Part shown: positions 1,684-55,620 of the stretch, piece by piece
Layout of the letters: each line of letters opens with the position of its first letter
Numbering within the stretch: position 1 is the stretch's first letter
Assembly (NCBI RefSeq): GCF_004010195.1
Contig: NC_057719.1
Location: 15,806,844 to 15,870,843 of the forward strand
DNA: 64,000 nucleotides
Direction of reading: 5' to 3'
Origin: Chiloscyllium plagiosum
Taxonomy: Eukaryota
Notes under the pieces: generated by a model
What the model saw: only the letters and a program-made list of their open reading frames with translations
What the model was told of the DNA's origin: nothing
Database searches by the model: none
Program-made: the position numbers and the translations under genes

Positions 1684-2272
1684 ATATATGGTAAAAACGA
1701 GGACTGCAGATGCTGGAAACCAGAGTCTGGATTAGAGTAGTGCTGGAAAAGTACATCAGGTCAGGCAGCATCCAAGGAGCATTTGCTCGACATTTCGGGC
1801 AAAAGCCCTTCATCAGGAATAGAGGCAGTAAGCCTCCATGGCAGAGAGATAAATGAGAGTGGGGTGGGGGTNNNNNNNNNNNNNNNNNGGAGGGGAAATA
1901 AGGAAACTGGTGAAGTCCACCTTGATGCTATGGGGTTGAAGTGTTCCGAGGCGGAAGATGAGGCGTTCTTCCTCCAGGCGTTGGGTGGTGAGGGAGCGAC
2001 AGTGGAGGAGGTCCAGGACCTGCATGTCCTCAGCAGAGTGGGAGGAGGAGTTGAAGTGTTGGGCCACAGGGTGGTGGGGTTGATTGGTGCAGATGTCCCA
2101 GAGATGTTCCCTAAAGCGTACTGCGAGGAGGCGTACAGTCTCTCCAATGTGGAGACCGCATCGGGATGTATTCTCCTACTCCTCGGATATGCCTGACCTG
2201 CTGTGCTTTTCCAGCACCACTCTAATCCAGACTCGGGTTTCCAGCATCTGCAGTCCTCGTTTTTACCATATA
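1684..2272 (-). mobile_element. Penelope-like element 3' fragment (endonuclease C-terminus) with inverted pseudo-LTR copies at both ends
   Basis: HFNSSSHSAEDMQVL..EEERLIFRLGTLQPH; about 95-bp terminal inverted repeat (TATATGGTAAAAACGAGGACTGCAG... / ...CTGCAGTCCTCGTTTTTACCATATA). Confidence 0.85.
1787..1820 (-). ncRNA. Minimal hammerhead ribozyme motif, family A
   Basis: Minus strand: TTC-CTGATGA-AGGGC-TTTT-GCCC-GAAAT-GTC-GAG. Confidence 0.65.
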
Positions 2273-3096
2273 TAAAATTGTGAGGGATTGCATCTAGGAT
2301 ATATAATTTTATATATCTCAATTTCCTCCCTCCCCATCGACGACTCTGCTCCAACCTTTCTTTATACTTAAAACTCTGCAGCCCAGGCAATGTCCTGGTA
2401 AATTGCTCTGTACCCTCATCAGTGTAATCACTATTTCTGCTCCTTGAAATTGAAGAACTTTGAAAAAACATCCGCAGTAGGTTAAAAGTAACCTACCTCA
2501 TAACTAAGGGGAGTTAATGAACATATTATTGCTCGACTATTAATCCAGAAACTCAGCTCATGTTCTTGGTTTAAATGCTGCCATAGCAAAAGGTGGAATC
2601 TTTCTTTTCATCTTACATATACACTATGCCTCACAGTAAAGTTGAGAGAATAACCTACCTCCATGACTTGAATACTGCTGAACATATTGAGGTGACATGA
2701 CCATCGAATTAAATTTACCACTAGTTGCCTCTCTCTATTGAGAGAGCAGCCTTATGGTCCACTGGTACTATGGTGACTTTGCCTTCACCTTTACCACTTG
2801 AGAAATGCTAGATGTCTTAAATGTTGATCTAGCCTTAATATGTTTTAACATTTGGAGGGATATGGGCCAGAAATAGGCAGGTGGGACTTGTTTAGTTTGG
2901 GATTATGTTTGGCATGGATTGGTTGGACCAAAGGGTCTGTTTCCATGCTGTATGACTGTATGATATAATGCTTTGTCATCAATTTATATAAACTTATTTT
3001 TTGAAGGCATGTCATAGTGTTTTGCTGGTAACTGCTCAATCATACAATAACTTTTATTCCTTTTTTTTTTAAATTTCAGAAACTATTTCCAGCAGC

Positions 3097-3175
3097 ATGG
3101 AATGGATGCATATTGTAATCATCACGTTGATGAAACTATTGCTTTCTAACTCAGAACACATATTGAATTCTAAAT
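3097..3175 (+). CDS. CATSPERB: CATSPERB coding exon 1 (ATG, signal-peptide-like MEWMHIVIITLMKLLLSNSEHILNSK, phase-1 end); exon acceptor probably at 3079/3080
   Basis: Poly-T tract plus TTTCAG acceptor upstream; hydrophobic N-terminus. 26 codons + 1 nt places Cys35 and Cys60 at the same positions as in recalled human CATSPERB. Donor T|GTACAG is weak. Confidence 0.75.
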
Positions 3176-3336
3176 GTACAGTATAATTATTAGTCTATTT
3201 TAGTTCCATCTGGTAGTGTAATTTATCTGTGCATCTGTGTAGTACTTAAAATTTAAAAAGCAAAAGAAACTATTGGTCAATTTTGTTGTTTGACAAAATT
3301 TGAAGTATAGAGTCAATAATACATCAGACAACTATA

Positions 3337-3667
3337 GATTAGATTTTTTTTTTAGATTAGATTTCATTACAATGTGGAAACAGGCCCTTCGGCCCAACAA
3401 GTCCACACCGACCCGCCGAAGCACAACCCACCCATACCCCTACATTTACCCCTTACCTAACACTATGGGCAATTTAGCATGGCCAATTCACCTGACCTGC
3501 ACATCTTTGGACTGTAGGAGGAAACCGGAGCACCCGGAGGAAACCCACGCAGACACGGAGAGAACGTGCAAACGTGCACACAGTCAGTCGCCTGAGGCGG
3601 GAATTGAACCCGGGTCTCTGGCGCTGTGAGGCAGCAGTGCTAACCACTGTGCCACCGTGCCGCCCAC
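3337..3667 (-). mobile_element. HE1-type tRNA-derived SINE
   Basis: Minus head GTGGGCGGCACGGTGGCACAGTGGTTAGCACTGCTGCC with B-box GGTTCAATTCC; CR1-like tail ending in (TCTAA)n. Confidence 0.92.
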
Positions 3668-3914
3668 ACAGATTATACTTTAGCTTACAGAAAGTTCCAG
3701 TTGAATGTTATCCCATTTAATGTGTTTGCTTCAATATTGATTAGTTACATCAGGCAGGATTCTGATTAAGTCATATTTCCACAGATGGTAGCTTCATATC
3801 ATTGGCTCCTCAGCAAAGCACATGCCTGTTGTTCCTCTCCTATTGAGCAGGATTACAAATGCAACAAAACAGCCTCAGTAAGTTAACAGTAACCTACCTC
3901 ATAACTAAGAGGGG

Positions 3915-4275
3915 TTAATGACCCAGACGTATTATTGCTAGACTATTAATCCAGAAACTCAGCTCATGTTCTGGGGACCTAGGTTTAAATGCTGCCGTAG
4001 CAGAAGATGGAATTTGTATTCAATAAAAAATATCTAAAATTAAGAATCCACTGATGACCATGAAACCATTGTCAATTGTTGGTGGAAAAGCTATCGGGCT
4101 CACTAATGTCCTTCAGGGAAGGAAATCTGCCAGTTTCACCTGGTCTGGCCTATATGTGACTCCAGACCCATAGCAATGTGGTTGATCTGCAAGTGCCCTC
4201 TGGCCAATTCGGAATGGACAGTGAATGCTTACCTAGCCAGAGATGCCCACATCCTGCGATTGATTACAAAAAAAT
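3915..4275 (+). mobile_element. Older shark SINE-like repeat (family recurs at about 6715-7100, 11055-11370, 12780-13140, 33150-33460 and 44915-45070, all minus strand)
   Basis: Shared core CTAATGTCCTTCAGGGAAGGAAATCTGCC...GGCCTATATGTGACTCCAGACCC and degenerate tRNA-like head; multiple dispersed copies. Confidence 0.7.
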
Positions 4276-5734: not shown

Positions 5735-6115
5735 CTTGAGAGGATGACGTGATCAGATCCTGGATGTAGGTTTGCTTGTTGAGCTGGAAGGTTAATTTCC
5801 AGATGTTTCGTCACTCTACTAGGTAACATCTTCAGTGGGCCTCAGGTAAAGCACTGTACATGATTCCTGCTTTCTATTTATACGTTTGGGTTTCTTTGGG
5901 TTGGTGATGTCATTTCCTGTTTCTTTCTCAGGGTGGTAAATGGGGTCTAACTTGATGTGTTTGTTGATAGAGTTCTTGTTGAAATGTCATGCTTCTAGGA
6001 ATTCTCGTGCATGTCTCTGATTGGCTTGTCCTAAGATGGATGTGTTGTCCCCGTCGAAATGGTGTCCTTCCTTATCTGTATGTTAAGATGCTAGTGAGAG
6101 AGGGAGATACTAGTG
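5735..6115 (-). mobile_element. Penelope-like 3' fragment (same family as 42415-43680)
   Basis: Reverse complement matches the 3' part of the 42415-43680 element. Confidence 0.8.
5799..5838 (-). ncRNA. Minimal hammerhead ribozyme motif, family C
   Basis: Minus strand: CCA-CTGAAGA-T-GTTAC-CTAGTAGA-GTGAC-GAAAC-ATC-TGG; stem I CCA/TGG, stem II GTTAC/GTGAC. Confidence 0.7.
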
Positions 6116-7221
6116 ATCAGATCCTGCTGGCCATCCGTAGCAATCTATGACAAGGTTGCAAAGATGCAAAGTAATATAACTAGGTTAGTGACTAGACCAA
6201 AATAAAATTGACATTGAAATATAATGTAGTAAAATGTGAGATTTTTGTTTCTGCAAGTTAACAGATAGGTTTTTGTCTTATTTAAATTTCAACATTGATT
6301 TCACTGATTACAGCATTCAGACTTAGAGAGTCTTTCTTTACAATGCAGGGGTGCCGAATGGACCCTACAAACTAAGACTTCCACAGTTTACTGGTCCATA
6401 CTACTACATCAACACACTAAAATACTCAGGTTGCAGTTGTTTTTTAACATTTTTTTGTATATTCCTGAAAGAGTAAAACACCTATGTGTTTGTATTTTAG
6501 GACATAATTCACAGGAGATTGCTTTCTGCTGAGATGGGTAGTCAGTCGTTTATTATCTTTGAAACCAAAGGATCACAATCCAGTTTGTTTTGAATTGCAT
6601 CTCTCTCATTGTAGAGCTGTAGTTTTAAGTTCAGGTGTGACATTCTATAGTTCCTTTCAGGGTTCTGCCAGATCTTCACTAAATTTACATCTGCAGTCAT
6701 CTTCTGTTAAAGAGCGAAGGCAACATCCTTCAAGGGCTATGGGTGTCGCTAAGAAAGGCCACCATTTGTTGCCCATCCCAAACTACCATTGAGCTACATA
6801 GCCATTAGATCATTTCAGAGAGAGTTCAGTGTCAACCACATTGTTGTGGGTCTGGAGTACATGTAGGCCAAACATGTAGGCCCAAGTAAATTTTGTTCCC
6901 TCAAGATTATTGGTGAATTAGATAGGCTTTTATTAAAATAAATACATGGTCACAATTATGTGTGATTGAACTTCAGTTATTTTTTATTGAATTCAAAATT
7001 TACAGCTGACTAGGTGGTCTTCAAATCCGTGTCCTCAGAACATTGGTCTGGGACTTAGATTAGTAGTCCAGTGACATTACCTCCATACCCCCTACCTCCT
7101 TTAATCAGCCATGATCTTTTTGAATGACACTGTAGACCTACCCTTGTTTGTACTTTTTATGTTATGATCTTATGTGTTACCATGTGTAAAATTATAACCA
7201 CATTGTTTATTTATCTTTCAG

Positions 7222-7310
7222 TTAAAGACACAACAAGATTTAGATGTATAACAGAAAAAGGACACAATTTTACAGAAAGGATCAGAATGTACCTTTATTT
7301 AGAAAAATTG
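7222..7310 (+). CDS. CATSPERB: CATSPERB coding exon 2 ((F)KDTTRFRCITEKGHNFTERIRMYLYLEKL)
   Basis: TTTCAG acceptor, GTAAGT donor, 89 nt, phase 1 to 0; aligns with human RFACSNKG...IKLYLFLENL. Confidence 0.9.
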
Positions 7311-8715: not shown

Positions 8716-10584
8716 TATAATATTTGCTCAAGAAGATTAAAGTCATTGACAGAAAAAAAAGTATTATGACACTATATATATTGATTACCTAAGGGCCTGA
8801 GAGTGATGTGAGGTAACTATCTATGTGGGTCACGACCTGTGTGGCTTTTGTAGGGTTCCATTGTGATAATGAAAGGTTGTATGATTATTAAGCAACACTG
8901 ATCCTGTAAAGATAATTCTCAGGTCTATGTAAAAGACACAATGAAATAACAAACACCAACTTTTTAAAAATACTTTGGATAATTTTTAGTAAATATTTAA
9001 TAGTCAGGAATTTTAAATGCCTTGACAGCGCTCGTGTCAGTTTCCAATGAGGCTGACAATTCCAAAGAAATTTACAACTTAATCAGTTCATGCATTTTGC
9101 ATACACATTATTGTCTACATTTTACAATCTCAAATGTACCTGACTTCCTCAAAGGTGTCTTGAACTATGAATATAAGAATGCCTTTCAAGCTTCAAGGTA
9201 GCTCTTCAAGAGATTACTGTCCCTCACTAAAGAATACCAGCGGCATTTGACTTTCTCCTGGTTCCAAAGTGTACAAGTTGTGTTTTTGAACAGCCCAATA
9301 GTGAAAATGAGATCACTGTGAGGCAGCTGCACATTAACATGCAGTTACCTCTGTGAGCCTTGGACTTACAATTTAGAACTGCTCTCACTGCCATATTGAA
9401 ATTGGTTGCTGTCATTTTGGGGGCATCTCAGGACTTGAGATTCCTCCTCTGTGGTAGAGAGAATAAATACTTAAGATAGTGTTTTTCTGTGTCAATAGGT
9501 GGGCTGCTTTGTCTTTGTTAGAGTTGAAGGTAGTGAGTATCTTTTGAATTTCAGTCATCCATACTGATGGAAAGTATTCCATTATACTACTGTAACTTTA
9601 TAATAGAGGACAGGCTTTGGAAGGTCGGGAGTGAGTTAATTGCTAGAGAATGTTCATCATTAGTTGATCTTGTAAAGGTAGTGGTGAACAACCCTTCTTG
9701 AACCCCTGCAGTCCATTAGTTATCTAAGTGTATCCATTGTGGTTTTAGGGAGAGAGTTCTAGGATTTTGATCCAGTGACAGCAAAGGAATAGGTTGTCTA
9801 AATAAGTCTAAAATGCGCCTAAGGATAAGGAATGGCTTGGAGAAGAACCTTTGGTTTTAGGTGTTCCCAGATATCTGTTTCTCTTTTCCATCTCGATTTT
9901 GGTGGTTGAGTTTGGACAGTTCTGTCTAAGGAGCTTTGGTGAATTTTTTCACTACATCTTTTTAGAAGATACAGATTGCTGTTACTCTGCGTTGGTGGAA
10001 GAGGGAAAGAATGTTTGTGGATGTGGTGCTAATCAAGCAGGCTACTTTGAGTTTAATGTTGTCTAGCTTCTTGACTGTTGTAGAAATCTCATTCATTTAA
10101 GCAAGTGGGAACATTCCATCACCGTCCATACTTGTATCTTGTAGATGGTGGACAGGCTTTAAGGAGTCAGGAGGTGAGTTCCTTGCTTCAGGACATCTAG
10201 TCTGTGCTGGGCTTGTAGACACAGTGTTTATATGGCACATCCAGTTTTTTTTCTGGTTAATAGTAACCCCAAGAATGTTGATATTGAATGTTAAGCTCAT
10301 TGACCCATAGACTCTCGCTTGTTGAAAATGGTCATTGCCTGGTGCTTGCGTGGCATAAATGTTATTTACCAGTTGTGACTCTGAACATGGATATTGTATT
10401 ACTACATTTGAAAGTGGACTGTTTCAGCATTTGAGCAGTTGCAGATCATGAAGACTATCATGTAATCATCAGCCTACATCACCTATACTGACCTTATATT
10501 TTAGGAAAAGTCATTGATGATGCAGCTGAAGATGGTTGGATCTCGAACACTATTTGGAGGAGCGCCTGCAAATATTTTCTTGAA

Positions 10585-10840
10585 CAAAAATCACATAACC
10601 CAAGTTATAGTCCCAACAGGAGATTTGAAAACACAAGCTTTCAGAGTGCTGTTCCTTCATTAGGTGCTAGTAAAAGAGGAAGACCTTAGCCTAAATTCTG
10701 TGTCTAAGTTCGTTCTCTCTCACTAGCACCTGATGAACGAGCAGTACTCTGAAAGCTAGTGTTTTCAAATAAACCCGTTGGACTATAACCTGGTGTTGTA
10801 TGATTTTTGATCTTGTCCAATACCGGCACCTCTACATCAA
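10585..10840. mobile_element. Fold-back Penelope terminus (family B); two inverted arms of about 100 bp, each with a hammerhead motif
   Basis: Arms at about 10586-10682 and 10713-10809 are reverse complements. Confidence 0.75.
10727..10761 (+). ncRNA. Minimal hammerhead ribozyme motif, family B
   Basis: CAC-CTGATGA-AC-GAG-CAGTA-CTC-T-GAAAGCTA-GTG; stem I CAC/GTG; palindromic AGCT at stem III. Confidence 0.6.
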
Positions 10841-13800
10841 GATTTTCTAGAGCTGAGATGACCGACTTCCTACAACCACAAATATCTTCCCGGATGCTGG
10901 ATATCTCACCGATCAGCAGAGTTGGTTCTTATCGATTCTTATTTTGCTAAGGTTCTTTGCTGCCACATTTAGTCAAGCACAGACACTCAATCCTAACTAT
11001 TGGAATTCATTTGTCAAGTCTGAACCAAGGCTGTAATGCAATCAGAAACTGAGTTTTTTTTACTCACTCATGGGATATAGACATCACTGTCTAAGCCAGC
11101 ATTTATTGTCTAACTTGCATTGCCCAATATCAACCTTAGTTACATGTCAGCCAGACCAGGTACAGATAACAGATTTGTTTCCCAAAGGACATTAGTTAAC
11201 CAGATGGAATTTTGTGACAATTGATGATGGTTTCATGGTTATCATTAGACCCTTAATTTCCAGCTTCTTTTCAATGAACTCAAATTCTACCATCTGTTAT
11301 GGTGGGATTTGAACCCAAGTCCCCAGAACATTAGCTGACCTTCTGGATTAGTAGTCTGATGATAATAGTGATCATGGCAGAACTTAACTTGAGCAGGTGA
11401 AGAGGTTATTGCTAAGCAAATGTTCCTTGATAGCACCGTTAATGATCCCTTAAGTCAATTTTATGATAATTGAGAGTAGGCTAAAGGGGTGATATTTGGC
11501 TGGGTTGGATTTGTTCTGCTTTTTGTGTACAGGGCTACCAGTGTTGTAAGCATGAGAACAGCTTGCCTAGTTGCACTACAAGTTCTGGAGCACAGATCTT
11601 CAGTACTAATGTTGGAATATTGTCATGGTCTTTTGCCTTTGCACCAAAGGCTGAAAGCTTTCAAAGATTTCTTGGAAATACGTGGAGTTAGTTATTTTGG
11701 CTGAAGTCAACTGTAATGCTGGGCATTTCCAAAGGAGGGTGAGATGGATCATCTCTTCAGCATTCTTGGTGAACATTGTTCAAATACTTTAGCCATTTTT
11801 TTCCACCAGTGTGCTAGGTGCCTCATCATTGAGGTTAAGGGTGTTTGTGAAGTTTCCTTCTCTAGTGAGTTATTTAATTGTTCACCACCAATATGACTGG
11901 GTGTTGTATGACTGCTGAACTTGGATTGATCCTTAAATGAAAGCAAAGTACTGCAGATACCTAGATCTGAAATTAAAATGTAAAGTGCTGGAGAAACTCA
12001 ACAGTATCTGGGAAGAGAAAAACAGTGGTGGACTCTCCCTCATTATGGGCATTTAAGCGGGCATTGGATAGGCATATGGAGGATAGTGGGCTAGTGTAGG
12101 TTAGGTGGGCTTGGATCGGCGCAACATCGAGGGCCGAAGGGCCTGTACTGCGCTGTATTCTTCTATGTTCTATGTTCTAAAGTCTAATGTCTAATTTTGA
12201 GTCTAATGTGACTCTTCAGAACTGAAAGTGCTGGCAAGTGATGGTTTTAATGCTGTTAACAAAGGGTCAAGATGAGTTGAGTAGATGAGAGTTTCCAGGA
12301 CAAAACAAAGGAAATGCCATTGGTAGTGGAAGAGAGATATGAGGGCAAAAGAAAAGTGTCAATGATAGGTGTGAAGAGTCGAAAATGGATCAAATTTGCT
12401 GCAAACAAATCCCCATAAACCTCTTCTTCCTCCAATATCCCCCTACCACCTTTGTCGACAGCAAGAGAGTCCATCATTTTCAGAGAGCAGTTAAAACTCT
12501 CCATGATGTTGTTTAGGTGGGGAGTCATGCAGGCGTCACCTTCCTTCCATGAAAAACATTAGTGAAGCAGATGGCTAACATTTAATTCTGGATATTAATT
12601 AATCCAAATTTTATCATTCAAATTAGTAGGTTTCAAGCCCACAACATGGAATACTAGTCCAGAGATAGCATCACTACACTACTGCCTCTCAATCAGAGTC
12701 ACGAGTCATGTTGAATGGCTTTGAAACCATTTTTACCTGACAATCACTCTTTGGTTTGCAATGATTATTGAAATACATGTTTTTAAAATTCATTCATGGG
12801 ATGTGGGTATCACTGGCCACTTTTGTATTTATTGCCTATCGCTAATTGCCCAGAGGGCAGTTAAGAGTCAACCACAATGCTGTGGGTCCGGAGTCACATG
12901 TAGACTAGACCAGATAAGGGTGACAATTTCCTTTCCTAAAATACATTAATAAACCAGATGGGTTTTTCCTGATAACCACCAATTGTTTCATGGTCATCAT
13001 TAGACTCTTCATTCCAGATTTTTATTGAATTCAAATTCCACCATCTAGCATGGCAGGATTTGAATGCAGCTCTCTTATCATGATCTGGCTCTCTGAATTA
13101 ATAGTTTAATGATAATACCACAGAGTCATTGCCTCCCCAAGGCATGGTGTCAGTGAATGCTGCAAATTGAATACAATGTGAGTTGCTAAGATAGTGTGCA
13201 CCTGCTGTATGATGTGTATCAGTTGTCACACGCCAGTGCATCTTCATCAAGTGGAATTCCTATTGGTTCGAGTTTGTGGCTGACTTCGCACTGAATTTAT
13301 GCAAAATAATGCAGTCTGGTATTCTGCATTGTGAGATGGCTGCAATCTTTGTAAACATTCATGATCACTTTATCTTTTTGTCTCCGGCAAGAAAGAATGA
13401 AGTTGGCTGTCTTTGTGTGAAAGACCTTAATGATCTCTCCTATGCATCAGTGTAATGCTCATGAAAAGATGTGTCTGTCACCAGAGCACGCTGGAAGGAG
13501 CCCAATAAAGCACAGCTCAGAGCCAACACAGGTTGGAACACTGACTGTAGCACTATGTAGATTTCAGTAACATCATCTTTGGTGAGGCATAGGTGCTTCA
13601 TTGCATTGGTTGAGAGTGAAGTTCAGATAAAAGAATTACTCCCTGAGTATCCTGTGCACTTCTTTCACTCCTTCTTTTCCTCCAGATTCCAGCAGCTTGC
13701 ACTGTTTTGTATGACTTCTGCATAGCCTCCTGGTCATATCTAATGCGAAAGTGAAATGTTACAAGGACCCCTATCTGGAAACAGTTGGCTTATCTATAAG

Positions 13801-14286: not shown

Positions 14287-14436
14287 GAAATCATCTGTAA
14301 TTTGTACCATGTAGATAATATTGAAGGAGGCGTTATGAACATACTTTCTCCTTTATATACAAGTCTGGGGCTGACTCCAAGTTTAGAGATATTTAACAGA
14401 ACTTCCTTAATTGCATTCAAGTTTGAAAGAAGCTTG
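14287..14436 (+). CDS. CATSPERB: CATSPERB coding exon 3 (EIICNLYHVDNIEGGVMNILSPLYTSLGLTPSLEIFNRTSLIAFKFERSL)
   Basis: TTTCAG acceptor, GTAAGA donor, 150 nt, phase 0 to 0; TSLGLTPSLEIFNRT aligns with human TSGGLAPSLGIMNST. Confidence 0.92.
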
Positions 14437-15323
14437 GTAAGACCCTGTTTTATATACAAATGTATAATTATGATCTTAATTGCATTTGACAATGTAAGTA
14501 AGGGAATTTAGTCTTAAAGAACCAGCCAAAGTATTCCTATCAAAACAAATACAAACACCACATCAGTACAAGTAACTTGGGTAGGAATGGGATGTGCTGA
14601 AAGCAGATTTTGGGAAGTGAGTAGGAAATTGAAAGGCATGGCCTCTAAAGCAATAATATTGGATTGCACCCATTTCCCTGTGTATTTGGATACAGAAATA
14701 GGAGAATTGAGTGATTGAATAAGATGTTGAAATGCTGGTGCAGGAGTGTGCAGCTGATGTCTAGGGCATTGCAATCACTTCTCGGTTGGTAGAGCCTGTT
14801 AGGCTGTTTGCGCATGAAGAGGATCAGGTTACAAATGAGGCCATATGGTTCTGAATCAGAAAAGAGCAAGTTAATTAGAAAAGACAGACAAGAGCAAGTT
14901 AGAGAATAAAATAACTGAACTATAAAACTGCATTTATTTCAATACAAGAGGACTTACAGGCTGATGAAATTAGGGCATGTATGGGAACATAGGACTGGGC
15001 TGTTCTAGCAATTATAGAAACTTTACTGAGGGAAGGATAGACTGGCAGCTCACTGTTCTGGCTTTTAGATGTTGTAGGAAAGAGAAGCAAGAGAGGAGGG
15101 CCAGTGGCATTTTTGATTAGCATTCTAATTAGAGAAGATGTTTCTGAGGGATTGTTTAATGAAAATGTATGGGTTGAAATTAGAAATAGGAAAGGGATTA
15201 TCCCCTTGATGGGATTATATTATAGGTCCCCAATAGTCAGAGGGAAATAGAGAAGCAAATATTTAGAGAGCTGTCCAATATATGTTAAATAATAAAGTTG
15301 TAATTGTAGGGGATTTAAATTTT

Positions 15324-15448
15324 GAAGAAGGGTTTATGCCCGAAACGTCGATTCTCCTGTTCCTTGGATGCTGCCTGACCTGCTGCGCTTTTCCAGCAAC
15401 ACATTTTCAGCTCTGATCTCCAGCATCTGCAGTCCTCACTTTCTCCTC
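15324..15448 (+). mobile_element. 125-bp Penelope-terminus insert (family A) with 15-bp TSD
   Basis: GGGGATTTAAATTTT at 15309-15323 and 15449-15463; insert starts inside the hammerhead core. Confidence 0.85.
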
Positions 15449-16840
15449 GGGGATTTAAATTTTCCAAACATTGAGTGGGGACTGCCTTAATGGTGAAGAA
15501 TTTGTTAAATGCGTTCAAGCAAATTTTCTTTATCGATATGTAAAAGCTTGACATTCTCTTGGGAAATAAGGTAGTGCAAGTGACTGAAATGTTAGTAGGG
15601 GAATGTTTTGGGACCAGTGATCATAATACTACTGGTTTTAAAATAGTTATGGAAAAGGACAGGTCTTCCATAAGAATTAAGGTTCTTACTTGGAATAAGG
15701 CAAATTTTAAGAGTATGAAAGAAGAATTTTCAAAAGATGATTGAAGTAGACTCTTTGCAGGTAAAAGGATGACTGACAAGTTGGAGGCCTTCAAAAATAT
15801 GATAACAAGAGTTCAGAAGCATTCTGTTCCTTTTAGAGTGAAAGGCAAGGCTGGTAAGATTAGGGAACAATGGATGAATAAAGATATTGAAGTTCTAGTC
15901 AAGATTTTTAAAAAATCATATATTAAATGTAGACAACTGGGATCGACTGAATCTCTTGAAGAGTATAAAGAGTGTAGGGGCATCCTTAAGAAGGAAATCA
16001 GAAAGTTAAAGAAAGGATATTAGATAGCCTTGGCAAATAAGGTTAAAGATAATCCAAAATATTCTACAAATACTTTAAGACAAAGAGAGCAACTAGAGAG
16101 AGAATAGGACACTTTCCAGATCAAGGAAGTTATCTTTGTGTTGAACCTCAGAAGATGTGAGAGTCATTAAATGAATATTTCATGTCAGTTTTTACTGTTG
16201 AGATATAAATAGAGGCTAGAGAACTCTGGGAAATAAATATTGATGTTTTGAAAACTGTTCACATTACAGAAGTTTTGGAAACAGTTCACATTAGAGAAGA
16301 GGAGCTGCTGGAGGTCTTAGAAAACTTCTTGGTAGATAAGTCCTCAGGACTTGATCAAATGTGATATAGGATGTTGGGAGAAGTTAGGAAGCAAATTGTG
16401 GAGCCCCTAACCAAAATATTTTGATCATTTATTACCGTGGGTTAAGTACGGTAGGGTTGGAAGGTGGTTGATGTTGTGCCATTGTTTAAGAAAGGCTGTA
16501 AGGAAAAGCCTGGAATTTACAGACTTGTGAGTCTGACATCAGTGGTAGGTAAGTTGTTGGATGTGATTCTGAAGGATAAGATTTATATGCATTTGGAGAA
16601 GCAATGATTTGTTAGGGAGAATCAACATGGTTTTGTGTGTGGGAAATCATGTCTGAGAAACTTGATTGAGATTTTAATAATGTAACCAAAAAGATTGATG
16701 AGAGCAGAACGATAGACAGTATTTACATGGACTTTAGTTAAATCTTTGACATGACCACATGGTAGGCTAATTAGTAAAGTTAAATCACATAGGATTCAGG
16801 ATGAGCTTGCCAGTTGGATACAAAATTGGCTTTATGATAG

Positions 16841-17732: not shown

Positions 17733-17809
17733 GATAGGAGACAGAGGGTGGTGGTAAAGGGTTGTTCTTTGGACTGGAAGCCTGTTCCACAGGAATCAGT
17801 ACTGGGTGC

Positions 17810-23055: not shown

Positions 23056-23131
23056 CATCTGTTTAGGGGTAAACAAAAAGGGCCCCAAGAGTGGTCTATT
23101 GGGGCCCTTTTTGTTTACCCCTAAACAGATG
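23056..23131. repeat. Perfect 33-bp inverted repeat with 10-nt spacer inside the LTR
   Basis: CATCTGTTTAGGGGTAAACAAAAAGGGCCCCAA (23056-23088) and its exact reverse complement (23099-23131). Confidence 0.95.
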
Positions 23132-24160
23132 ATACCTCAAACCAAAGGCTTTCATGTTTTAGAATAACTTATGTAATGAAAGGTGAGTGGCCAGTCTTGG
23201 CAGCTGAGGTTTTTTGATCCAGTTGCAGCAGGGGATATATGAAACAAGCTGCTGGACTTTCTCTCTCCTTACAAACTGTAAGTTGCCTGTGCCATGTTTT
23301 ACTGTTTGTGCTAAGGGATGTGTGTGTTTTCAGAACAACACCATTAAGTTGAGTTTGTATAGGATAAGTTATGCAATATTCTGTTTTCTGTCCTTTGTGT
23401 TTAATTCTGTAATGTTGTAAATAAAGCTTATTTGTTTAAAACTTGGCAGTCGACCCAGCTAATTTACACCCAGAATATCCACTATACACTTAGCTAAACA
23501 AAGAGCAAAGTTATGGTCTGGGCTATCTGCTTATAATTTTGAGGGGCCTGACCTAGTCCATAACAGATTGGGAGCTCTTTGCAGGATTTAAACAGTGAGT
23601 GGTGGGTGTTAGTGTCTTTCATTTTAGGTGTTGATTTGGTGGTTTAAACAACACTTGGACAGCAATGGCTTTTGCAGTCACCAAGGGGTTTCTGGAGGTT
23701 GAAAGAGAGACCTTAAGGCTTTTATAAAAGGCAAAAAAAACCAAGCTGCAGGAATTAATAGATAAGCTGGGGTTGAATTTATCTCCTAATGTGAGGAAAA
23801 ATGCAATGATTTCAGCAGCAGCTCAGTATTTAAATTTGCTAGAAACACCATCAGGATCTGTAGAAATGGCAAGCATTCAATTGCAGATGATGCAGCTTGA
23901 GTTAGAGGTGGAGAAAAGGAAAGGGTAGCAGAAATGAAATAGTTTGAGTTATAATTAAAATCAGAAAAAAAAAATGAATGAAGGGCTTTAGCAAAAGAGA
24001 AAAAGAGAATGAAGGGCTCTAGCAGAAGAGGAAAAAAAGAGAGCTTGAACTTCAAAAATTGACATGAAAAGGGAAGTCAGCGTAAAAGAATGGAGATAAA
24101 GGATGAAGGTAGGCTTAGTGAGGAAGAGAGTGAGGATGAGCAAGCCCCTGGTAGTCAAAA

Positions 24161-24245
24161 CTGAAAATGTGTTGCTGGAAAAGCACAGCAGGTCAGGCAG
24201 CATCCAAGGAGCAGGAGAATCGACGTTTCGGGCATGAGCCCTTCA
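24161..24245 (-). mobile_element. 85-bp Penelope-terminus insert (family A) in gag
   Basis: Flanked by GGTAGTCAAAA / GGTAGGCAAAA (24150-24160, 24246-24256). Confidence 0.8.
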
Positions 24246-30395: not shown

Positions 30396-30714
30396 GTGAT
30401 TTTTGGGCATGATGAGTTGGTCTCAGGACAAAGATGAAATAGAAATTGAAATTCCCCTTTACTCTTTGGAAACAATGACTCTTAATCCCTTCCATTATTT
30501 ACAAATTAAGGGAAAAATCATCTCCCACATTTGTATTTTAATTATTAGTTTGTACACTGTGACATTACATGTGATTATGAGCTTCTGGAATGTGGATATC
30601 ACAGACTGGTCCAACAGTTATTGTTTGTTCCTACTTGTCCTTGAGGAGGTGGCGATGAGCTATCTTCTTGAATCACTGCTGTCCATATGCCACTGTATGC
30701 ACTGCTGGTTATAC

Positions 30715-31090
30715 TCCAGATTTATTTGAAAGTAGTACTAGCTTTCAGAGTGCTACTCTTTCATCAGGTAGCTAGTGGGGCAGGATCATAAGACTCAGAA
30801 TTTATAGCACAAGATCTTAGTGTCATAATATGATACATTGAACAAACCTAGATCGCTGTTAAGTCTTTCATCTTTTAGAATGATTTGCAGGTTTCGATTC
30901 ATTAATAGGTGAATTCCGGAACTTCTTCCAAGATAACTGAAGGTTTTATAAAAAAAAGTGACACCTCCACTTAGACAATGAATTAAACATGTGAGGTTAG
31001 AGTCTGTCTGTTTTCCAGTCTTGAGTCAGACTGGTTCTGTTTCTAAAGTAGGAATTTATAAAATGTCACATGGATTGACTGCTTGCATTG
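30715..31090 (-). mobile_element. Penelope-like fragment (family B) with degenerate hammerhead at about 30737-30771
   Basis: Minus strand: TAC-CTGATGA-AAAGAGTAGCACTCT-GAAAGCTA-GTA; runs into the gap. Confidence 0.6.
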
Positions 31091-34398: not shown

Positions 34399-34520
34399 AA
34401 TTCCTGATGAAGGACTTTTGCCCGAAACGTTGATTTTCCTGCTCGTATGCTGCCTGATCTGCTGTGCTTTTCCAGCGCTCTAATCTAGACTCTAGAATCT
34501 GCAGTCCTCACTTTTGTCTA
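34399..34520 (+). mobile_element. Penelope-terminus insert (family A) with mutated hammerhead
   Basis: TTC-CTGATGA-AGGAC-TTTT-GCCC-GAAAC-GTT-GA followed by the family A tail. Confidence 0.75.
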
Positions 34521-35344: not shown

Positions 35345-36330
35345 ACTTACAGGATAGGAGGACACTACAAGGGCATCCTGTGCTGGAGCCGGTGGACATG
35401 GGTGTGGTCTTAAATGTATAATTTTCATCTGTATTCACAGAGGGGAAAGAAATTGTAGCCAGGGATATCAGTTGGGATGGTCAGATTCGAAACACATTAA
35501 GATTAATAAGGAAGAGGCTTTAGATGATTTTAGCATGCGTGCAGGTGTATAAATCCTGATGAGATGTATCCTGGGGTGGTATAGGAGGCAAGGACAGAAA
35601 TTACTAGGACCCTAGTAGATATATTTAACACTTTTCTGGCCATAGGCAAAGCACCAGATGACTGGAGAACAACTAATGTGGTTCCTTTGCTCAAAATGGG
35701 CAACAGGGATAATCCAGCTAATTACAGACCAGGTAGTGATATTGATGAGGGTAGTGTAATTGATGCAGTTTACATGGACTTCAGTAAGATCTTTGACATG
35801 GAAGACTGGTCCAAAAGGTAAGAATCCTTGGAATTCAATGCAAGTTAATAAACCAGATCCAATATTGGCTTACAAGAAAGAGGCAATGAAGTATGGTGAT
35901 GCAACGTCTGAAACTGAACCTTCCAGCTTAGCGAGCAACCTCACTTCCAGAACCTTCAGAGATCTGTGGACTTGTACACTAAGGTTCCTTTGCTTCTCGG
36001 TACTCCCGAGGGACCTACCATTCATAATGTATATCCTTCCTTATTAGACCTCCTAACATGCATCATCTTGTACTTCTCAGGATTATATTCCATCTGCTAT
36101 TCTCTGCCTAATTTACCAGCAGATCAATGTCAGACCATAGCCTGAGACCATCTTCCTGACCAAACCACCAATATTTGTGCCATCTACAAACTTACTAATT
36201 AAACCTTCTACATTCATATCCAAGTCTTTAATGTAACTTGATACCACAGCATCAAATCCTGTGGTACACTACTGGTCACAGGTTTCCAATTATGAAAATA
36301 ACCCTTCACCATCACCACCTAGTGCTTTCC
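35345..36330. mobile_element. Decayed CR1 fragments (+ strand about 35345-35890; minus strand about 35950-36330)
   Basis: ANVVPL-like, DAVYMDFSK remnants. Confidence 0.65.
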
Positions 36331-36369
36331 ATTCTTGTGTATTGAGTGTGTTTCCTTCCTTTTTCCAGG

Positions 36370-36795
36370 ATACATGAAGATCAACTAGCCACAAAAAGAC
36401 TTGAGCCACTATCACTAGTGTCCTTACATGCAGATGAGGAAGGACGCCAATTTGACTGGGACAACACATCCATCCTAGGACAAGCCAAACAGAGAAACAC
36501 ATAAGAATTCCTAGAAGCATGGCATTCCAACCGGAACTCTTTCAACAAACACATAGATTTGGATCCCATTTACCAACCCCTGAGAAAAGGAGCGGGTAAT
36601 GGCATCATCATAGAAAATGATGTCACCACAGGAAATGACATCACCAACCCAAGGAACTGCAACTCTATCAACAAACACATCGATTTGGACCCTAACCACC
36701 ATACTACTTCAGTGAGCCTCCGGTGAAGTGCTGGTGATATGTCCCACTTTCTATTTATGTGTTTAGGTTTCTTTGGGCTGATGATGCCATTCCCC
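36370..36795. mobile_element. Rearranged Penelope family C fragments
   Basis: Matches 43285-43500 on the + strand, then an inverted piece. Confidence 0.75.
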
Positions 36796-39800: not shown

Positions 39801-42415
39801 GTTAATATCTCCATTATTCTAAAAAAGGGAATGATAGCGAAGATTGCGCATCGTATAGACCCATCTTGTTGCTGAATGTGGATTTTAAAATTTTATCAAA
39901 GGTTTTGTCTTTGAGACTGGAGAAGGTGCTGCCTGTTATTATAAAAGAGGACCAGACAGGTTTTGTCAAGGGTCGCAGCTCCTCTAATAATATCAGGCGG
40001 ATATTGAATATGGTGCAATATGTCAACAGAGGGCGATTCCGGTTTTGGTGTTTTTCCTAGATGTGGAGAAGGCTTTTGATCGTGTGGAATGGTCGTATCT
40101 CTTCGCTATTTTAGATCGTTTATGTCTAGGAGGGGCCTTCGCTAGGTGGATGAGAGTGTTACATAAAGACCGTAGGTAGCAGTTATTACAAATGGGGTTA
40201 AGTTGAGTAATTTTGATCTGGAGAGACGTAACCAACAGGAATGTCCCTTGTCGCCGCTACTGTTCACTTTTGTTCATGAACCACTGGCGGAGACTATTCG
40301 AGAAAACTCTAAATAAGGGCACTTAAAGTTGGAACTGGGGAACACAAAATCACTCTTTACGCAGATGATATCCTTCTATTTCAAGCTAACCCGGAAAATT
40401 CCATGCCCCAAATATTAAATTATGTGGTGGCTTTTCGGAATATAGGATACATTTCACAAAATCTGAAGTGATGCCCGTGGTTGGGTTGGTGGAGACACCA
40501 AAGTTGGAGGGCGGAATGGAATTTCTCTTTAGATGGTCACAGAAAGGTTTTCTCTATCTTGGAACTTTTATTACTCCTTGCTTCCAGCAGCTGTATGGAA
40601 CTAACTTTGTACAGCTGTTTGAGAGGATAAAGCAGGACTTCTAGCAATGGGAGGGACTGTCCATATCATGGCTTGGCCGTATAGCCTTGATTAAGATGAC
40701 TCTTCTCCCTCAGTTGCTATATGCTATGACAATGCTCCCATTATTATTACCTAAAGAGGTGCAGCGGAGATTTGCCGGATGGCTTGGATTGTTTATTTGG
40801 TGCCATAGGCACCCTTTAATTAAATTTACCAAGTTGCAGCTTCCGCAGGATATGGCTGGGATGGATCTCCCGGATCTGAAGAAATATCAAATAAACACTC
40901 TGCTGTCATATGTAGGTGGATGACCTGAAATCGATATGGTTAGATGTGGAGGCCTCTCAGGCAAAGTGTCCCCTCATAAACTTGCATTTCATGGATAAAG
41001 TGAGATTGGTAATTGAACACTGTGCAAGTCCGCTTATTATAAATACAGTAAAAGCATGGAAGATAATGCAGCAGGGTGAGGGCAATTTGCTCAAGACTTC
41101 GCCGTTTATCCCGTTGCGGGGAGCTCCAGGATTTAAGCTGGGGTCAATGGACTCTGGCTTTAGAGCATGGGAGGGTAACGGAATCTCCTGACTGGGAGAT
41201 CTGTTTGAGGGAGAGGTCTTGATGTCTTTTAGCCAATTAAGTCAGAAGTACAGAATCCCTAATAGGGATCTTTTCTGATATTTCCAAGTTAGGGATTATA
41301 TACAGAAAAAAAAACATGTTTTTGACCCAGCCATACAAGTCAGATGTAGAACACAGTCAGTTAGTACCATATATCATCTGCAAAGAGGGAATGCCTGGGG
41401 GGATATGGAGAGGCTTCATGAGATTTGGAGTCAGGAGTTAGGGGAAGAAATCTGGTCAGAAACATGGGAGGATATATGGGGGAACGTAAAGAAGATTTCA
41501 ATATGTAATAGGGCTCAAGCGATGCAATTGAATTTCCTCCATAGGGCCCATATGGCACTAGAGAGACTAGCAAAGTTTAAAAAGGATCTTCTCAGAACTG
41601 TCCCAAATGTAAAAACAGTTTTGAAACCCTTACGTGTTGTTTCTAGTCCTGTCACAAAATCTGCAGATATTGAGGGCCATAGTGAATGAACTGGAAGTGA
41701 TCTTGGAAATGGAAGTAAGGGGGGAATCCAGTGTTCCTCCTCTTAGAACTACCGAATCTTTCCTCTTTGAATCAGCATGGGAGGAGATTATTCAACATTC
41801 TGATGTACTGTACAAGGAAATCATCCTAATGAATTGGATATCAGAAAAGTCACCAGGTCTTGTAGATGGCGCAGATTTGTGATGAAACAGGTCTCTCAGG
41901 ATTACTTAACAAGTATAGTGCAGCACAGAACAGAAAAATTTTATAAGACGTCGTGGCCCTTTTTAAATTATATAGACATAGATTTGTTGATGGCATTGAT
42001 AAGGACCTTCGCATAGCTATGAGGACCATATATGGCAGTCTGGGGACCCCGAGGTGGGAGGAGGGGGTATAATCACTGTTGCCCCCGTGGACGGGACCCT
42101 TTATGGAAGTGCGGCAAGTGGAGTAATGTAATATAGTACAATGTGGTGTAATTTAGTTTTGGTGAATTGTAATTTAATTTAATGTCTTATTTAATTTGAG
42201 TTTGTGTTAGTTTGGTTTAAGTTAATAAGAGTCGACTACAATCTGGAGAATAGTAGGCAGTTTATTGTTAACTTTATTGTAATATAACATAATAGTGCGA
42301 TATTATTCCTACTTTTCTGTGCTTTTGTACTTTTATAACTTTGTTTTCTTTTTTTCTTTTGGTTTGTGTTTTTTGTAAAAAACAAAGTAACATTTTTTTC
42401 AATAAATATATACAT
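36840..42415 (+). mobile_element. Near full-length decayed L1-clade LINE (ORF1, long spacer, ORF2 EN-RT)
   Basis: ORF1 NNLEN*GWRKNL; EN NIRGSHSPIKRKKVLSSLKKERVDIAMLQET and GGDFN; RT LLNVDFKILSKVL, DQTGFVKGRSS, LYADD; T-rich 3'UTR with AATAAA; many frameshifts. Confidence 0.88.
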
Positions 42416-43680
42416 AAGAGAAAGAACCAAAGACAGAAACAACTTCATCAACAATGACAATATCGTCAAGTTAGTGGACCTATGCCTCACCACCCACTTC
42501 ACATTCAATAGCAAGACCTATAAACAAATCAATGAAACACCCATGGGAACACTGACATCAGGGTTCTTAGCAGAAGCAATAATGCAGAAACTTGAACAAA
42601 CAGCTCTCCCAACCATCCAACCCAAACTTTGGGTCCGCTACGTGGATGACACCTTTGTCATTGCTAAATGAAACAAATTAGAGGAAACCTTCAAGACCAT
42701 CAATAATATCCTTACTGGCATAAAATTCACTAAAGAGGAGGAAAACAACAACAAACTGCCATTCCTAGATGTCACAGTAGGGCGAACAGTCAATGGGGAT
42801 CTTCAAACCAGTATCTATAGAAAACAACACATATAGAATAACTACTTAACTACAGAAGCAATCATCCCAACACCCACAAATGAAGCTGCATAAGGATATT
42901 ATTTCAATAAGTCACCACACTGCAGCACCGAGGAACTATGAAGAGTAGAAGAAAATCACCTCTCCTGTGTATTTAAGAAGAATGGGTACCCAATAAACAC
43001 AGTCTGCTGATCTTTCAGCAACAAACTCAAACAAGCAGACAAAACATGCCCAGAAACCCTAGCCACTTCACCCTACATCAAAGACATCTCCAAAATGACT
43101 GTCAGACTACTCAGACCTCTTGGCATCATGATAGTCCACAAACAAACCAACATACTTAAACAGTAGCTAATGAACTTAAAAGACCCTATACAGATAACAA
43201 GCAAAACAAATGTCATTTACAAAATACCTTACAATAACTGTAACAAACACTACATTGGACAACCAGGCAGAAAACTAGCCACTAGGATTCATGAACATTC
43301 AACTAGCCACAAAAAGACATGGCCCACTATCACTAGTATCTTTACGTACAGACAAGGAAGAACACCACTTTTACTGGGACAACGCATCCAAACAGAGACA
43401 CGCATGAGAGTTCCAACTGGAACTCTATCAACAAGCACATTGATTTGGACCCCATCTGCCATTCTCTGGAAAAGAGACCAGAAATGGCATCATCAACTCA
43501 AAGAAATCTAAATACATAAATGGAAAGCGGGACATAACACCAGCGCTTCACCAGAGGCTCACTGATGATGTTATCTAGAATGGTGACGACACGCTTGAAA
43601 TCAAACCTTCTAGCTCAGCGAGCAAGCTTACATCTAGAACCTCAACCTGAACTACAAATCTTTTCAAAACTCACTAATCC
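42415..43680 (+). mobile_element. Penelope-like element 3' half (RT plus GIY-YIG), decayed; family C hammerhead remnant at about 43559-43598
   Basis: FNSKTYKQINETPMG, WVRYVDDTF, NVIYKIPYNNCNKHYIGQPGRKLATRIHEH; CTGATGA-TGTTATCTAGAATGGTGAC-GACAC. Confidence 0.9.
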
Positions 43681-44707: not shown

Positions 44708-44803
44708 ATATATTTCCTGCAGATGAATGGTACGTGAGATTCAAACTGCACTATGGAACACGTTTGTTTTCAACAGAAGGAACCTTACTGGATGTTGTGA
44801 GGG
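44708..44803 (+). CDS. CATSPERB: CATSPERB coding exon 5 ((D)IFPADEWYVRFKLHYGTRLFSTEGTLLDVVR)
   Basis: AACAG acceptor, G|GTAGGT donor, 96 nt, phase 1 to 1; strong match to human EEWLVRITLHHGLNIYATEGTLLDVIR. Confidence 0.95.
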
Positions 44804-48130: not shown

Positions 48131-48223
48131 GTGTTTATTTGTTGGTAACCAAGAGTGCATTTAAGGCAGAGAATGACAAGTGGTATGATGTCAAACCTAA
48201 ACTCTGTGCTTTACTCAATGGAG
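48131..48223 (+). CDS. CATSPERB: CATSPERB coding exon 7 ((G)VYLLVTKSAFKAENDKWYDVKPKLCALLNG)
   Basis: TCCAG acceptor, G|GTAATT donor, 93 nt, phase 1 to 1; aligns with human GVYIGITFGGFW...WFNM. Confidence 0.9.
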
Positions 48224-50639: not shown

Positions 50640-50755
50640 CTTGTGATAATATTGCTCTAAAGAATATTGTACTGACTAATCGACATGTGCTACTATTGAC
50701 AACGCATGGCCTTTTCATAAGCCATAACTTGCTCGATGTAGGAAAGAATCCAAAG
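50640..50755 (+). CDS. CATSPERB: CATSPERB coding exon 8 ((A)CDNIALKNIVLTNRHVLLLTTHGLFISHNLLDVGKNPK); gene continues beyond this exon
   Basis: TTTAG acceptor, AAG|GTATGT donor, 116 nt, phase 1 to 0; VLTNRHVLLLTTHGLFIS aligns with human VLTNHFLVILTSLGLFVS. Confidence 0.92.
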
Positions 50756-53610: not shown

Positions 53611-54049
53611 AGTATGTAAAGAGTTGAAGTGCCTTACTTAGAGTTACAAAGGAACTGCACTCTGAAAGCTAGTGCTTCCAAATAAACACGTTGGCATATA
53701 ACCTGGTGTGGTGTGATTCTTATTTAGAGATAAGGAGCAAGCAACCTCAGGGATGCTGTATGTGCAAACATCCACAGCTTAAGTAATCTAGACTGGAATC
53801 TCAATGTGCAGATTACAGTATTTGCTTAAAACAAAAGATAAAATAAGAAGTTGACTTCAGGTAGATCCTGGGATCAAGAATGATGAATGAGAGTGGATCA
53901 AGTGGGGTCTTTCTGTGGAGCCAGAAGCAGCAGTCCTGCACCTCTTATTTGCGCATTAAGCCAAGTTATATGACAAACCTGATTTTTTTTGGCACTTTTC
54001 AAGATTTTCAGAATGGCTAGACCACAGAAGGAACTGGAAAAGAAAATTT

Positions 54050-54360
54050 TGATTTAGATTTGATTTGATTTATTACTGTTACGTGTATATGTCAAAGTAT
54101 TGTTTTGCGTGCTAACCAGATAAACCTTACATAAATACATCAGAATAATAGAACAGATTGCAGAATATAGTGATACAGCTATAGAGAAGGTATAGAGAAG
54201 GGTCAACTCTAATATATAAGGGGTCCATTCATAAGTGTGATAACAGTGGGAAAGAAGCTGTACTTAAACCTGTTGGTATGTCGTTTCAAACTTTTATATA
54301 TTCTGCCTGATGCAAGAGGGTGGAAGAGAGTATAATCAGGGTGGGAGGGGTCTTCGATTA
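54050..54360 (-). mobile_element. Rex1/Babar-type LINE 3' end
   Basis: IIEDPSHPDYTLFHPLASGRIYKSL..RFKYSFFPTVITLMN; (AAATC)n tail. Confidence 0.8.
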
Positions 54361-55190
54361 TCAATTTGGAGAGGTCTGATTTATAACAGTGCTGGAAGTT
54401 TAAATTACCCTTCAACTGGACATCTTACTAGCAGTTCCAGTTGTTAACATATTAGTAATTTGACGTTTGGCCTCTGGATTTTCATGGTTATTTGACTTCA
54501 CTTTCCATAGAAACCACAATAAGGGTCATTTTTCTTTTAAGCCATTATTAGATTTTTGTCTAATATAGATAGTATGAAGGCCCCATTTTGTTTCATTTCC
54601 AATCCAGAATAATTGTTTAATATTAAACAAAGAACTGCAGATGTTGAAGATCTGAAACAAAAACAGAAATTGCTGGTGAATAGCAGAGTTTTTGTTTTGA
54701 GTCAGGTTTTATCAGGTTTTGTTTTATCAGGTGCTGCTAGACCTGCTTAGTTTCCTAGAAATTTCTGGGGTTTTTTCAGAATAATTGTTTACTTTTCTTT
54801 GTAAATTTCTATTTTGTTACTGGATGTAACCAAGAATCCTACAGTCCCATTTCACAATCTGTCAATATCACTGCTTATACATTTCGAGGTTTTTGTCTCC
54901 TTTGCCTAAGTCAAAATAATATAGAACTCCCTAAACATCTCAACGGTATACTTCCTCTATTATCAATTGCTACAACCCTGTTTTCTGTCTCTTGGTCAAT
55001 TCTGTGTCCGTCCAGTCATTGCTGTTTAAACACATGGGCTTTAATTTTGTGAACAGTTCTTTGGAACTTTAAGTCCACATACTTGATCTAAGTTAAAAGT
55101 CATGCAACACCAGGTTTAGTCCAACAGGTTTAATTGGAAGCACATTAGCTTTCAGAGCACTGCTCTGTCATCAGGTGACAATCACCTGAT

Positions 55191-55529
55191 TAGATTAGAT
55201 TAGATTAGATTAGATTACTTACAGTGTGGAAACAGGCCCTTCGGCCCAACAAGTCCACACCGACCCGCCGAAGCGTAACCCACCCAGACCCATTCTCCTA
55301 CATTTACCCCTTCACCTAACACTACGGGCAATTTAGCATGGCCAATTCACCTAACCCCTGCACATTTTTTTTTGGATTGTGGGAGGAAACCGGAGCACCC
55401 GGAGGAAACCCACGCAGACACGGGGAGAATGTGCAAACTCCACACAGTGTCGCCTGAGGCGGGAATTGAACCCGGGTCTCTGGCGCTGTGAGGCAGCAGT
55501 GCTAACCACTGTGCCACCGTGCCGCCCAC
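55191..55529 (-). mobile_element. Young HE1-type SINE
   Basis: Intact tRNA-like head; (TCTAA)n tail; TGAT flanking duplication. Confidence 0.92.
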
Positions 55530-55585
55530 GGTGATGAAGGAGCGGCACTCCGAAAGCTAGTGTGCTTCCAATTAGTGTGCTTCAT

Positions 55586-55620
55586 TTCCTGAAGAAGGGC
55601 TTATGCCCGAAACGTCGATT
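55586..55620 (+). ncRNA. Minimal hammerhead ribozyme motif, family A (best-preserved copy)
   Basis: TTC-CTGAAGA-AGGGC-TTAT-GCCC-GAAAC-GTC-GATT: full CUGANGA/GAAA core, 4-bp stem II, GUC triplet, palindromic ACGT. Confidence 0.75.

Follow-up and report, generated by a model that had tools for sequence, protein, structure and literature searches.

The CATSPERB locus of the shark Chiloscyllium plagiosum carries about a dozen short motifs that resemble hammerhead ribozymes, some of them in the orientation of the gene. Which elements brought these motifs there, and could they act on the host RNA? We analysed a 64,000-nucleotide (nt) stretch of the locus (assembly GCF_004010195.1, contig NC_057719.1, positions 15,806,844 to 15,870,843 of the forward strand), referred to here as the window and numbered from its first letter. 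A preliminary description, made from the sequence alone, had placed the motifs in three families (A, B and C) and attributed them to several coexisting lineages of Penelope-like elements (PLEs). Our results indicate that the motifs are very probably minimal type I hammerheads carried by three repeat families in their 3' ends. Two of the families are joined to PLE remnants and the third is likely of the same origin, and the copies in the window are likely dead retrotransposed stubs without a cleavage effect on CATSPERB.

Hammerhead motifs of three families

A hammerhead-like motif of the assigned family is recognisable at all 13 sites listed earlier as intact or degenerate, and a covariance model adds no fourth family in the window. 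The stem sequences differ between families A, B and C yet still pair, and the core is kept, as had been described. The coordinates given earlier for minus-strand copies mark the low end of the motif; the C3 residues of these cores are located at 1816, 5835, 10669, 30767 and 55174. Five pieces were absent from the earlier list: 53644-53723 (+, B), 35890-35958 (+, C), 36709-36794 (-, C, half a core), the arm 27586-27706 (-) and a tail-only arm at about 2168-2290 (+). The copies, with unit and arm boundaries set by hand, are as follows.

Family A
1690-2166 (-): PLE 3' end with a GIY-YIG remnant at 1933-2166, C3 at 1816, helix III word decayed to AUGU, and a tail (tblastn and descriptor)
2168-2290 (+): inverted tail-only arm of the same insertion, starting 1-2 nt after the predicted cut site
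15324-15448 (+): stub with its 5' end within the core and no C3; target duplication of 15 nt (15309-15323 and 15449-15463)
24155-24245 (-): stub, core cut, no tail
27586-27792 (both strands): head-to-head pair, both cores cut; tail on the minus arm only; 12-nt target duplication
34402-34519 (+): stub, core intact, stem II with a single mismatch; flanked by a direct repeat of 7 nt
55575-55678 (+): stub nested in family B; 12-nt target duplication; C3 at 55589, predicted cut after 55616

Family B
10584-10841 (both strands): head-to-head pair, C3 at 10669 (-) and 10730 (+), stem II mismatches in both; tail on the plus arm only; AATAAA at 10768-10773
30700-30805 (-): undamaged core (C3 at 30767) with stem II of 5 bp, stem I of 3 bp and the palindrome AGCU; on the strand opposite to CATSPERB; AATAAA at 30721-30726
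53644-53723 (+): stub, core cut; AATAAA at 53681-53686; GU-rich stretch at 53705-53711
55091-55771 (both strands): head-to-head pair, C3 at 55174 (-), core of the plus arm split; 12-nt target duplication; tail on the plus arm only; ATTAAA at 55687-55692
55191-55530 (-): short interspersed element (SINE) in the CUGAUGA core of the family B plus arm, defined by its junction sequences; further copies in the window

Family C
5763-6112 (-): 3' end with an endonuclease C-terminus and a hammerhead, C3 at 5835, helix III word ACAU (decayed); 14-nt target duplication at 5749-5762 and 6113-6126
35890-35958 (+): stub starting inside stem II
36364-36794 (both strands): two converging pieces, an endonuclease end on the plus strand and a pseudo-LTR piece on the minus strand that ends at CUGA
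42400-43676 (+): 5'-truncated element with remnants of reverse transcriptase (RT), thumb and GIY-YIG domains, containing stops and frameshifts, followed by a hammerhead with C3 at 43562 and a broken GAAA

The core follows the type I order, CUGANGA ... GAAA ... UH, and is intact at the family level among the read variants. There is no loop III, and helix III is a four-base palindrome, ACGU in A and AGCU in B; the family C palindromes have decayed, with ACGU kept at 35875. One unpaired base precedes stem II in all three families. The pair G10.1-C11.1 is G-C in A, in C and in the majority of B, and A-U in two B copies.

Four sites, 1816 (-), 5835 (-), 30767 (-) and 55589 (+), satisfy a strict descriptor that demands a perfect core, at least 3 bp in stem II and at least 2 bp in stem I; no site does so in any of 15 dinucleotide shuffles. 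Allowing one mismatch raises the number to five, against 0-1 per shuffle. A covariance model built from 22 loci outside the window, which is A-like, recovers five family A copies at E 5e-6 or better; family B and C copies do not score significantly with it. The preliminary description had proposed an Rfam hammerhead search as a check. That search returns no match in the window and equally misses eight of eight control loci with clean motifs; its blank is therefore uninformative.

Only two copies, at 55589 (+) and 30767 (-), have kept the core and stem II as well as an unbroken helix III palindrome. Elsewhere C3 is lost (15322), the core is cut (24245 and both arms at 27700) or split by the SINE (55531), stem II is mismatched (34404, 10730 and 10669), GAAA is broken (43562), the first stem I pair is lost (55174) or the palindrome has decayed (1816 and 5835). 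Most copies are thus broken and likely inert.

Coding remnants join families A and C to Penelope-like elements

The proposed PLE origin holds for families A and C, in which the motifs adjoin coding remnants. Family B is likely Penelope-like as well, as judged by its motif and its insertion architecture. The coexistence of several ribozyme-bearing lineages accordingly stands for A and C and is likely for B as a third.

In family A, the GIY-YIG remnant at 1933-2166 (-) shares 82% identity over 79 amino acids (aa) with P0001 (tblastn), and some 120 nt separate its end from the downstream core at 1816. P0001, a shark protein, matches both RT and GIY-YIG and contains a Cx2-5CxxC linker. Only the endonuclease of family A is present in the window, and its RT is known from the relative P0001. 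The linker is a mark of Neptune and Nematis (Craig 2021, PMC8557442). Family A fits a PLE of the Neptune/Nematis type by the linker of its closest relative P0001, the corresponding part of the element being absent from the window.

In family C, the region 42400-43400 (+) matches P0005 at 67% over 313 aa, from the RT through the endonuclease, directly ahead of the motif at 43562 (tblastn), and the 42400-43676 (+) element matches Pfam RVT_1 at E 2.5e-5. An endonuclease end also adjoins the family C motif at 5835 on the same strand. The Cx2-5CxxC linker is absent in all four family C relatives tested, and family C fits the Penelope/Poseidon type by this missing linker. The retroelement remnants are closest to proteins of Chiloscyllium punctatum and Stegostoma tigrinum, in keeping with a carpet shark.

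Insertion anatomy and 5' ends

The copies are organised as retrotransposed insertions. Direct repeats of 12-15 nt flank five of the 14 units (null frequency 0.0003 for repeats of at least 12 nt), and 7-nt repeats flank two more (null 0.056). Four units are head-to-head pairs, and in three of these a tail of 35-40 nt is present on one arm only. Where the sequence of a pair is complete (three cases), a fold-back along the arms is predicted.

The 5' ends are clustered. Among 17 arms, 11 start between -10 and +15 relative to C3, one at the cut site, one about 45 nt upstream and four far upstream. Under the most favourable model of constant drop-off, the chance of this is 1e-5 by arms and 3e-4 for 8 of 13 units. 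The count leaves aside the rearranged unit at 36364-36794 and three weak tail-like hits; with the weak hits it becomes 11 of 20. Many arms start upstream of the cut site, and the RNA template was therefore presumably uncut, which limits models of how the element uses its ribozyme.

Alternatively, the short copies could constitute a separate non-autonomous family, SINE-like or retrozyme-like, with transcription starting immediately upstream of the core and mobilisation in trans. The uniform length of 80-130 nt, the target duplications and the clustered 5' ends would suit such a family, as would head-to-tail joints of family A found in 4-12 contigs per DNA run and the report of retrozymes in one chondrichthyan genome (bioRxiv 2026.07.22.740005). 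However, the 5' ends vary from -9 to +15 and several copies have incomplete cores, coding remnants adjoin the same end modules at 1816, 5835 and 43562, and no tandem array with a motif in each unit occurs within the window. We consider a separate family unlikely and favour truncated 3' ends of PLEs. A tandem retrozyme identity was rejected for the window, which has no array with a hammerhead per unit.

The sequence TCATTCC, located just 5' of the family A cores (loose-end consensus at 55586), fits the initiator consensus YYANWYY, with +1 four bases before C3. It is a possible reason for the clustered 5' ends.

Further details of the insertions were noted. In the family A unit at 1690-2290, the inverted repeat reaches beyond the arms at either end, into roughly 20 nt of flank-like sequence (1670-1690 and 2268-2290), and there is no direct target duplication, as if the second arm had been copied from an already joined end. 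The 55091-55771 region records three nested events, namely the B pair, the SINE within the core of its plus arm, and an A stub in its 3' part. The SINE is presumably HE1-like. The A stub sits 15 nt past the B cut site and carries 10 additional bases that were copied from the target. The three weak hits, at 11947-12005 (-), 54631-54685 (-) and 11890-11923 (+), resemble old tails of A and B (E 0.2-0.4) and possibly represent older subfamilies. Head-to-head motif pairs are also present in non-shark metagenome contigs (L071:741-931, L074 and L091).

Covariation, folding and the case against ribozymes

The most sceptical reading is that the motifs are chance look-alikes within repeats. To its credit, Rfam returns no hammerhead match and covariation within the window is weak. 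A pattern of core and stem II, with stem I left outside the pattern, was matched by 124 metagenome loci of an estimated 590. These loci share only the core with the window, and they test the motif class rather than the shark families. Stem I has three Watson-Crick pairs in 88 of 127 matches outside the window (permutation mean 15.9, maximum 28); with identical flanks collapsed, the pairs are found in 9 of 40 against 1.8 expected, and slid partners give 0-5. Stem I covaries in 23 two-sided cells, a value reached in 0 of 500 shuffles. In 16 of the 124 loci, a match to P0001 lies upstream on the same strand. The loci belong to elements of other organisms, and related copies inflate the counts. 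The pattern has no match in viral contigs. The stem I covariation, together with a core and palindrome common to three unrelated end sequences and the Rfam misses among the controls, largely refutes chance resemblance, which we hold to be exceedingly improbable.

The preliminary description had proposed a test of covariation per family. Covariation is strong across the loci outside the window that share the core; within families in the window it is weak, which is one of several points that weigh against the preferred reading of the motifs as hammerheads of retrotransposed PLE ends. In family B, three of eight pairs in the window are changed on both sides, which 17 of 500 shuffles reach, and CpG decay can account for part of this signal. 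Stem I of most family A copies consists of 2 bp followed by a U-U mismatch; the variant that pairs makes up 6%, 24% and 0.2% of the depth in three DNA runs. Among five copies tried, the cleavage-competent dimer was never the lowest-energy fold, and neither monomers nor dimers reached the active structure when folded freely, in an energy model that does not score the core. Nine of the 14 units have no convincing target duplication (seven with no convincing repeat, two with 7 nt only), and the 5'-end interval of -10 to +15 was picked after inspection of the data. Finally, the window shows no coding remnant for family B: seven PLE proteins searched by tblastn give no match near B copies. An assembly gap lies 320 nt upstream of the B copy at 30767, and a reading frame upstream of it that resembles an endonuclease end has no Pfam match and is not used as support.

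Read and contig variants over 55528-55800 give a further view of the families. Among the variants listed, non-CpG changes of the A motif fall at N7, loop II and position 1.3, and in the B motif such changes affect loop II. CpG decay of about 7-14% is seen at G12 and in helix III across genomic copies. This pattern fits selected master elements accompanied by neutrally decaying copies.

Abundance and a probable poly(A) site in family B

Families A and B are very abundant. The 273-nt stretch 55528-55800 is matched at 80% identity or better by 77,297, 97,191 and 73,599 contigs in the three DNA runs, figures that are a sign of high copy number and not a count. For RNA, 4718 reads map to this stretch from about 2% of one poly(A)-selected single-cell run (X21); their source loci are not shown to be this window.

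Family B differs from the others behind the cut site. A(A/T)TAAA lies 10-13 nt behind the predicted cut site in four of six B arms, and a fifth signal is displaced by the nested A insertion; none of the 10 family A and C arms has a signal of its own there. The signals are located at 10768, 30721, 53681, 55129 and 55687. In the RNA run, 531 reads depart from the reference at 55574, complete ATTAAA and, after a further 13 nt, pass into an A-run (agreement 0.96; median length of the loose part 83), and genomic family B copies contain a GU-rich stretch behind the position of the A-run. This arrangement of signal, A-run and GU-rich stretch has the spacing of a canonical poly(A) site. Coverage of the B core is biased to one strand (823 reads vs 92), while that of family A is about equal on both. 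At least three loop variants occur among the poly(A)-bearing B reads, which suggests that they come from several loci. We regard it as probable that family B carries a genuine poly(A) site some 30 nt downstream of the cut site.

A more far-reaching proposal would make family B ends mobile poly(A) sites on host transcripts, where the ribozyme 30 nt upstream can remove the tail, as in the 3' untranslated regions (UTRs) of mammalian Clec2 genes. The signals, the reads that run into the A-stretch and their strand bias all speak for it. The reads come from a single sample, however, and among the loose-end rows listed a genomic A-tract with internal priming is another possible source of the A-run. 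The reads are also uncut: 721 reach 5' of the B core, 196 span the cut site and join the core to the B 3' part, and read ends pile up at no position, including the cut site, in this RNA run. Moreover, the signal is not general, since it lies downstream in 6 of 94 and upstream in 3 of 94 loci outside the window. All sense B cores in the window are broken, two of the three within fold-backs. We judge such a switch on host transcripts quite improbable, and the same holds for a cassette whose tail is kept while the ribozyme is a silent monomer and lost once a dimer partner or an element protein activates it. The preferred reading, of PLE ends with decayed ribozymes, accommodates the poly(A) site as part of the family B end module.

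A B-like motif with an AGCU palindrome and a CAC/GTG stem I is found in an unrelated metagenome contig (L108:301-360), with AATAAA about 19 nt behind its cut site.

Consequences for CATSPERB

CATSPERB was located by Pfam matches to predicted exons:

14287-14493 (+): CATSPERB exon, E 4e-4
30335-30395 (+): CATSPERB exon, weak, E 0.15
44708-44803 (+): CATSPERB exon, E 9e-6
50640-50755 (+): CATSPERB exon, E 8e-4 to 2e-3

From 14287 to 50755 the positions in the Pfam model rise in order, and the exons are collinear. This places the gene on the plus strand, so that the sense copies between them are intronic, in agreement with the earlier suggestion that sense copies lie inside the host pre-mRNA. Scanning 132 of the 144 listed plus-strand frames supported no exon before 14287 or after 50755, and a protein search with a CATSPERB exon gave no match. 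The gene is unfinished at 50755, and the copies at 53-56 kb are probably intronic as well. Two high-scoring predicted exons that lack Pfam support, 7222-7310 (+) and 48131-48223 (+), are further CATSPERB candidates, the former by its splice score and a resemblance to CATSPERB.

It is conceivable that intronic sense copies cleave the CATSPERB pre-mRNA and are retained for that role. Sense copies do lie between supported exons, and the A copy at 55589 has a complete core. Yet all five copies between the supported exons (15322, 27710, 34404, 35890 and 43562) are broken. Among the sense copies, only that at 55589 combines a complete core with stem II and the ACGU palindrome; it is located downstream of the last supported exon, presumably in an intron. 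Its stem I has 2 bp followed by a U-U mismatch, and there is no intact partner nearby. Sense copies are spaced 1.5-12 kb apart, except for 58 nt between this copy and a broken one with a different palindrome. Nor do the core-bearing arms have an evident strand preference (nine sense, eight antisense). Because the sense copies between the exons are broken, the copy at 55589 is weak and partnerless, and published monomers are inactive and dimers slow, ribozyme cleavage of CATSPERB RNA is unlikely; a retained role in cleavage is very improbable. Premature polyadenylation at 53681 or 55687 would be a more plausible effect on CATSPERB than RNA cleavage. We keep to the reading of the copies as likely dead stubs.

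Comparison with known systems

Minimal hammerheads of PLE pseudo-LTRs were described in 2014 by Cervera and De la Pena (PMC4209133), who found them in the Poseidon and Neptune elements of fishes, among others. Their monomers showed no cleavage, and their dimers cleaved slowly or little. The motifs of the window resemble them in the type I core, the lack of loop III, the palindromic 15.2-16.2 positions and the extra base before stem II, and also in the presence of several families per genome, mostly as solo copies with some opposite-strand pairs. In contrast, the stems in the window are shorter (stem II 4-5 bp, stem I 2-3 bp). Within-family covariation aside, families A and C have the computable features of this PLE class, and our result would add a shark to a class known since 2014, with little consequence for CATSPERB. 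In the accessible text of PMC4209133 and its searchable supplement we found no shark and no mention of a poly(A) cassette. The open literature, with subscription journals and Repbase outside the search, gave no report of a PLE ribozyme in sharks or cartilaginous fish or of a PLE poly(A) site.

The insertions resemble endonuclease-bearing PLEs (Arkhipova 2013, PMC3846280; Craig 2021, PMC8557442) in their 5' truncation, head-to-head inverted ends, one-arm tails and solo pseudo-LTRs. Those elements have tails of 30-40 nt and target duplications of about 8-10 nt, whereas duplications in the window reach 15 nt and most insertions consist of the end module only, starting from the ribozyme core. For the Anolis Poseidon element PAc (Frangieh 2024, PMC11167929), RT was found to start 111-118 nt into the open reading frame behind the ribozyme, at two sites (tail). 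Its targets are AT-rich, uncut RNA is the main template, cleavage is assisted by protein and no read ends fall at the cut site. PAc is an active full-length element assayed in vitro, unlike the dead stubs of the window.

Non-LTR type I retrozymes (bioRxiv 10.64898/2026.07.22.740005) share with the window type I hammerheads derived from PLE ends. They are tandem arrays with a motif per unit, while the window holds solo and head-to-head copies only. The Clec2 3' UTR hammerhead of mammals (PMC6765202) resembles family B in having its cut site upstream of a polyadenylation signal. It is a single, split, domesticated ribozyme that is active as a monomer, in contrast to family B, a high-copy minimal motif known from its sequence.

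A mechanism can be proposed by analogy with published PLE work. The GIY-YIG domain of the element would nick AT-rich DNA, and RT would begin at internal positions of the RNA, some 90-130 nt past the ribozyme; the existence of two start points would make the tail optional. Uncut RNA would serve as the template, and synthesis would usually end close to the core, where either the RNA has its start or RT dissociates. Two neighbouring motifs of an active master element may pair via their palindromes and cut slowly, likely with the help of an element protein. Solo genomic copies would have no partner and decay. In family B, the end module is likely to contribute the poly(A) site some 30 nt past the cut site as well. 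If confirmed, this site would permit a direct in vivo test of cutting by a minimal ribozyme, by comparing tailed and cut ends between intact and broken copies. Should the switch be true, a retroelement would have spread a Clec2-like device over the shark genome in tens of thousands of family B copies.

Two features of the window belong to none of the three families. The region 23056-23131 forms a near-perfect hairpin of about 36 bp. In addition, inverted LTR-retrotransposon-like pol fragments at 25905-26636 and 58487-60723, with an integrase core and with RT and RNase H, are 84% alike over 351 nt.

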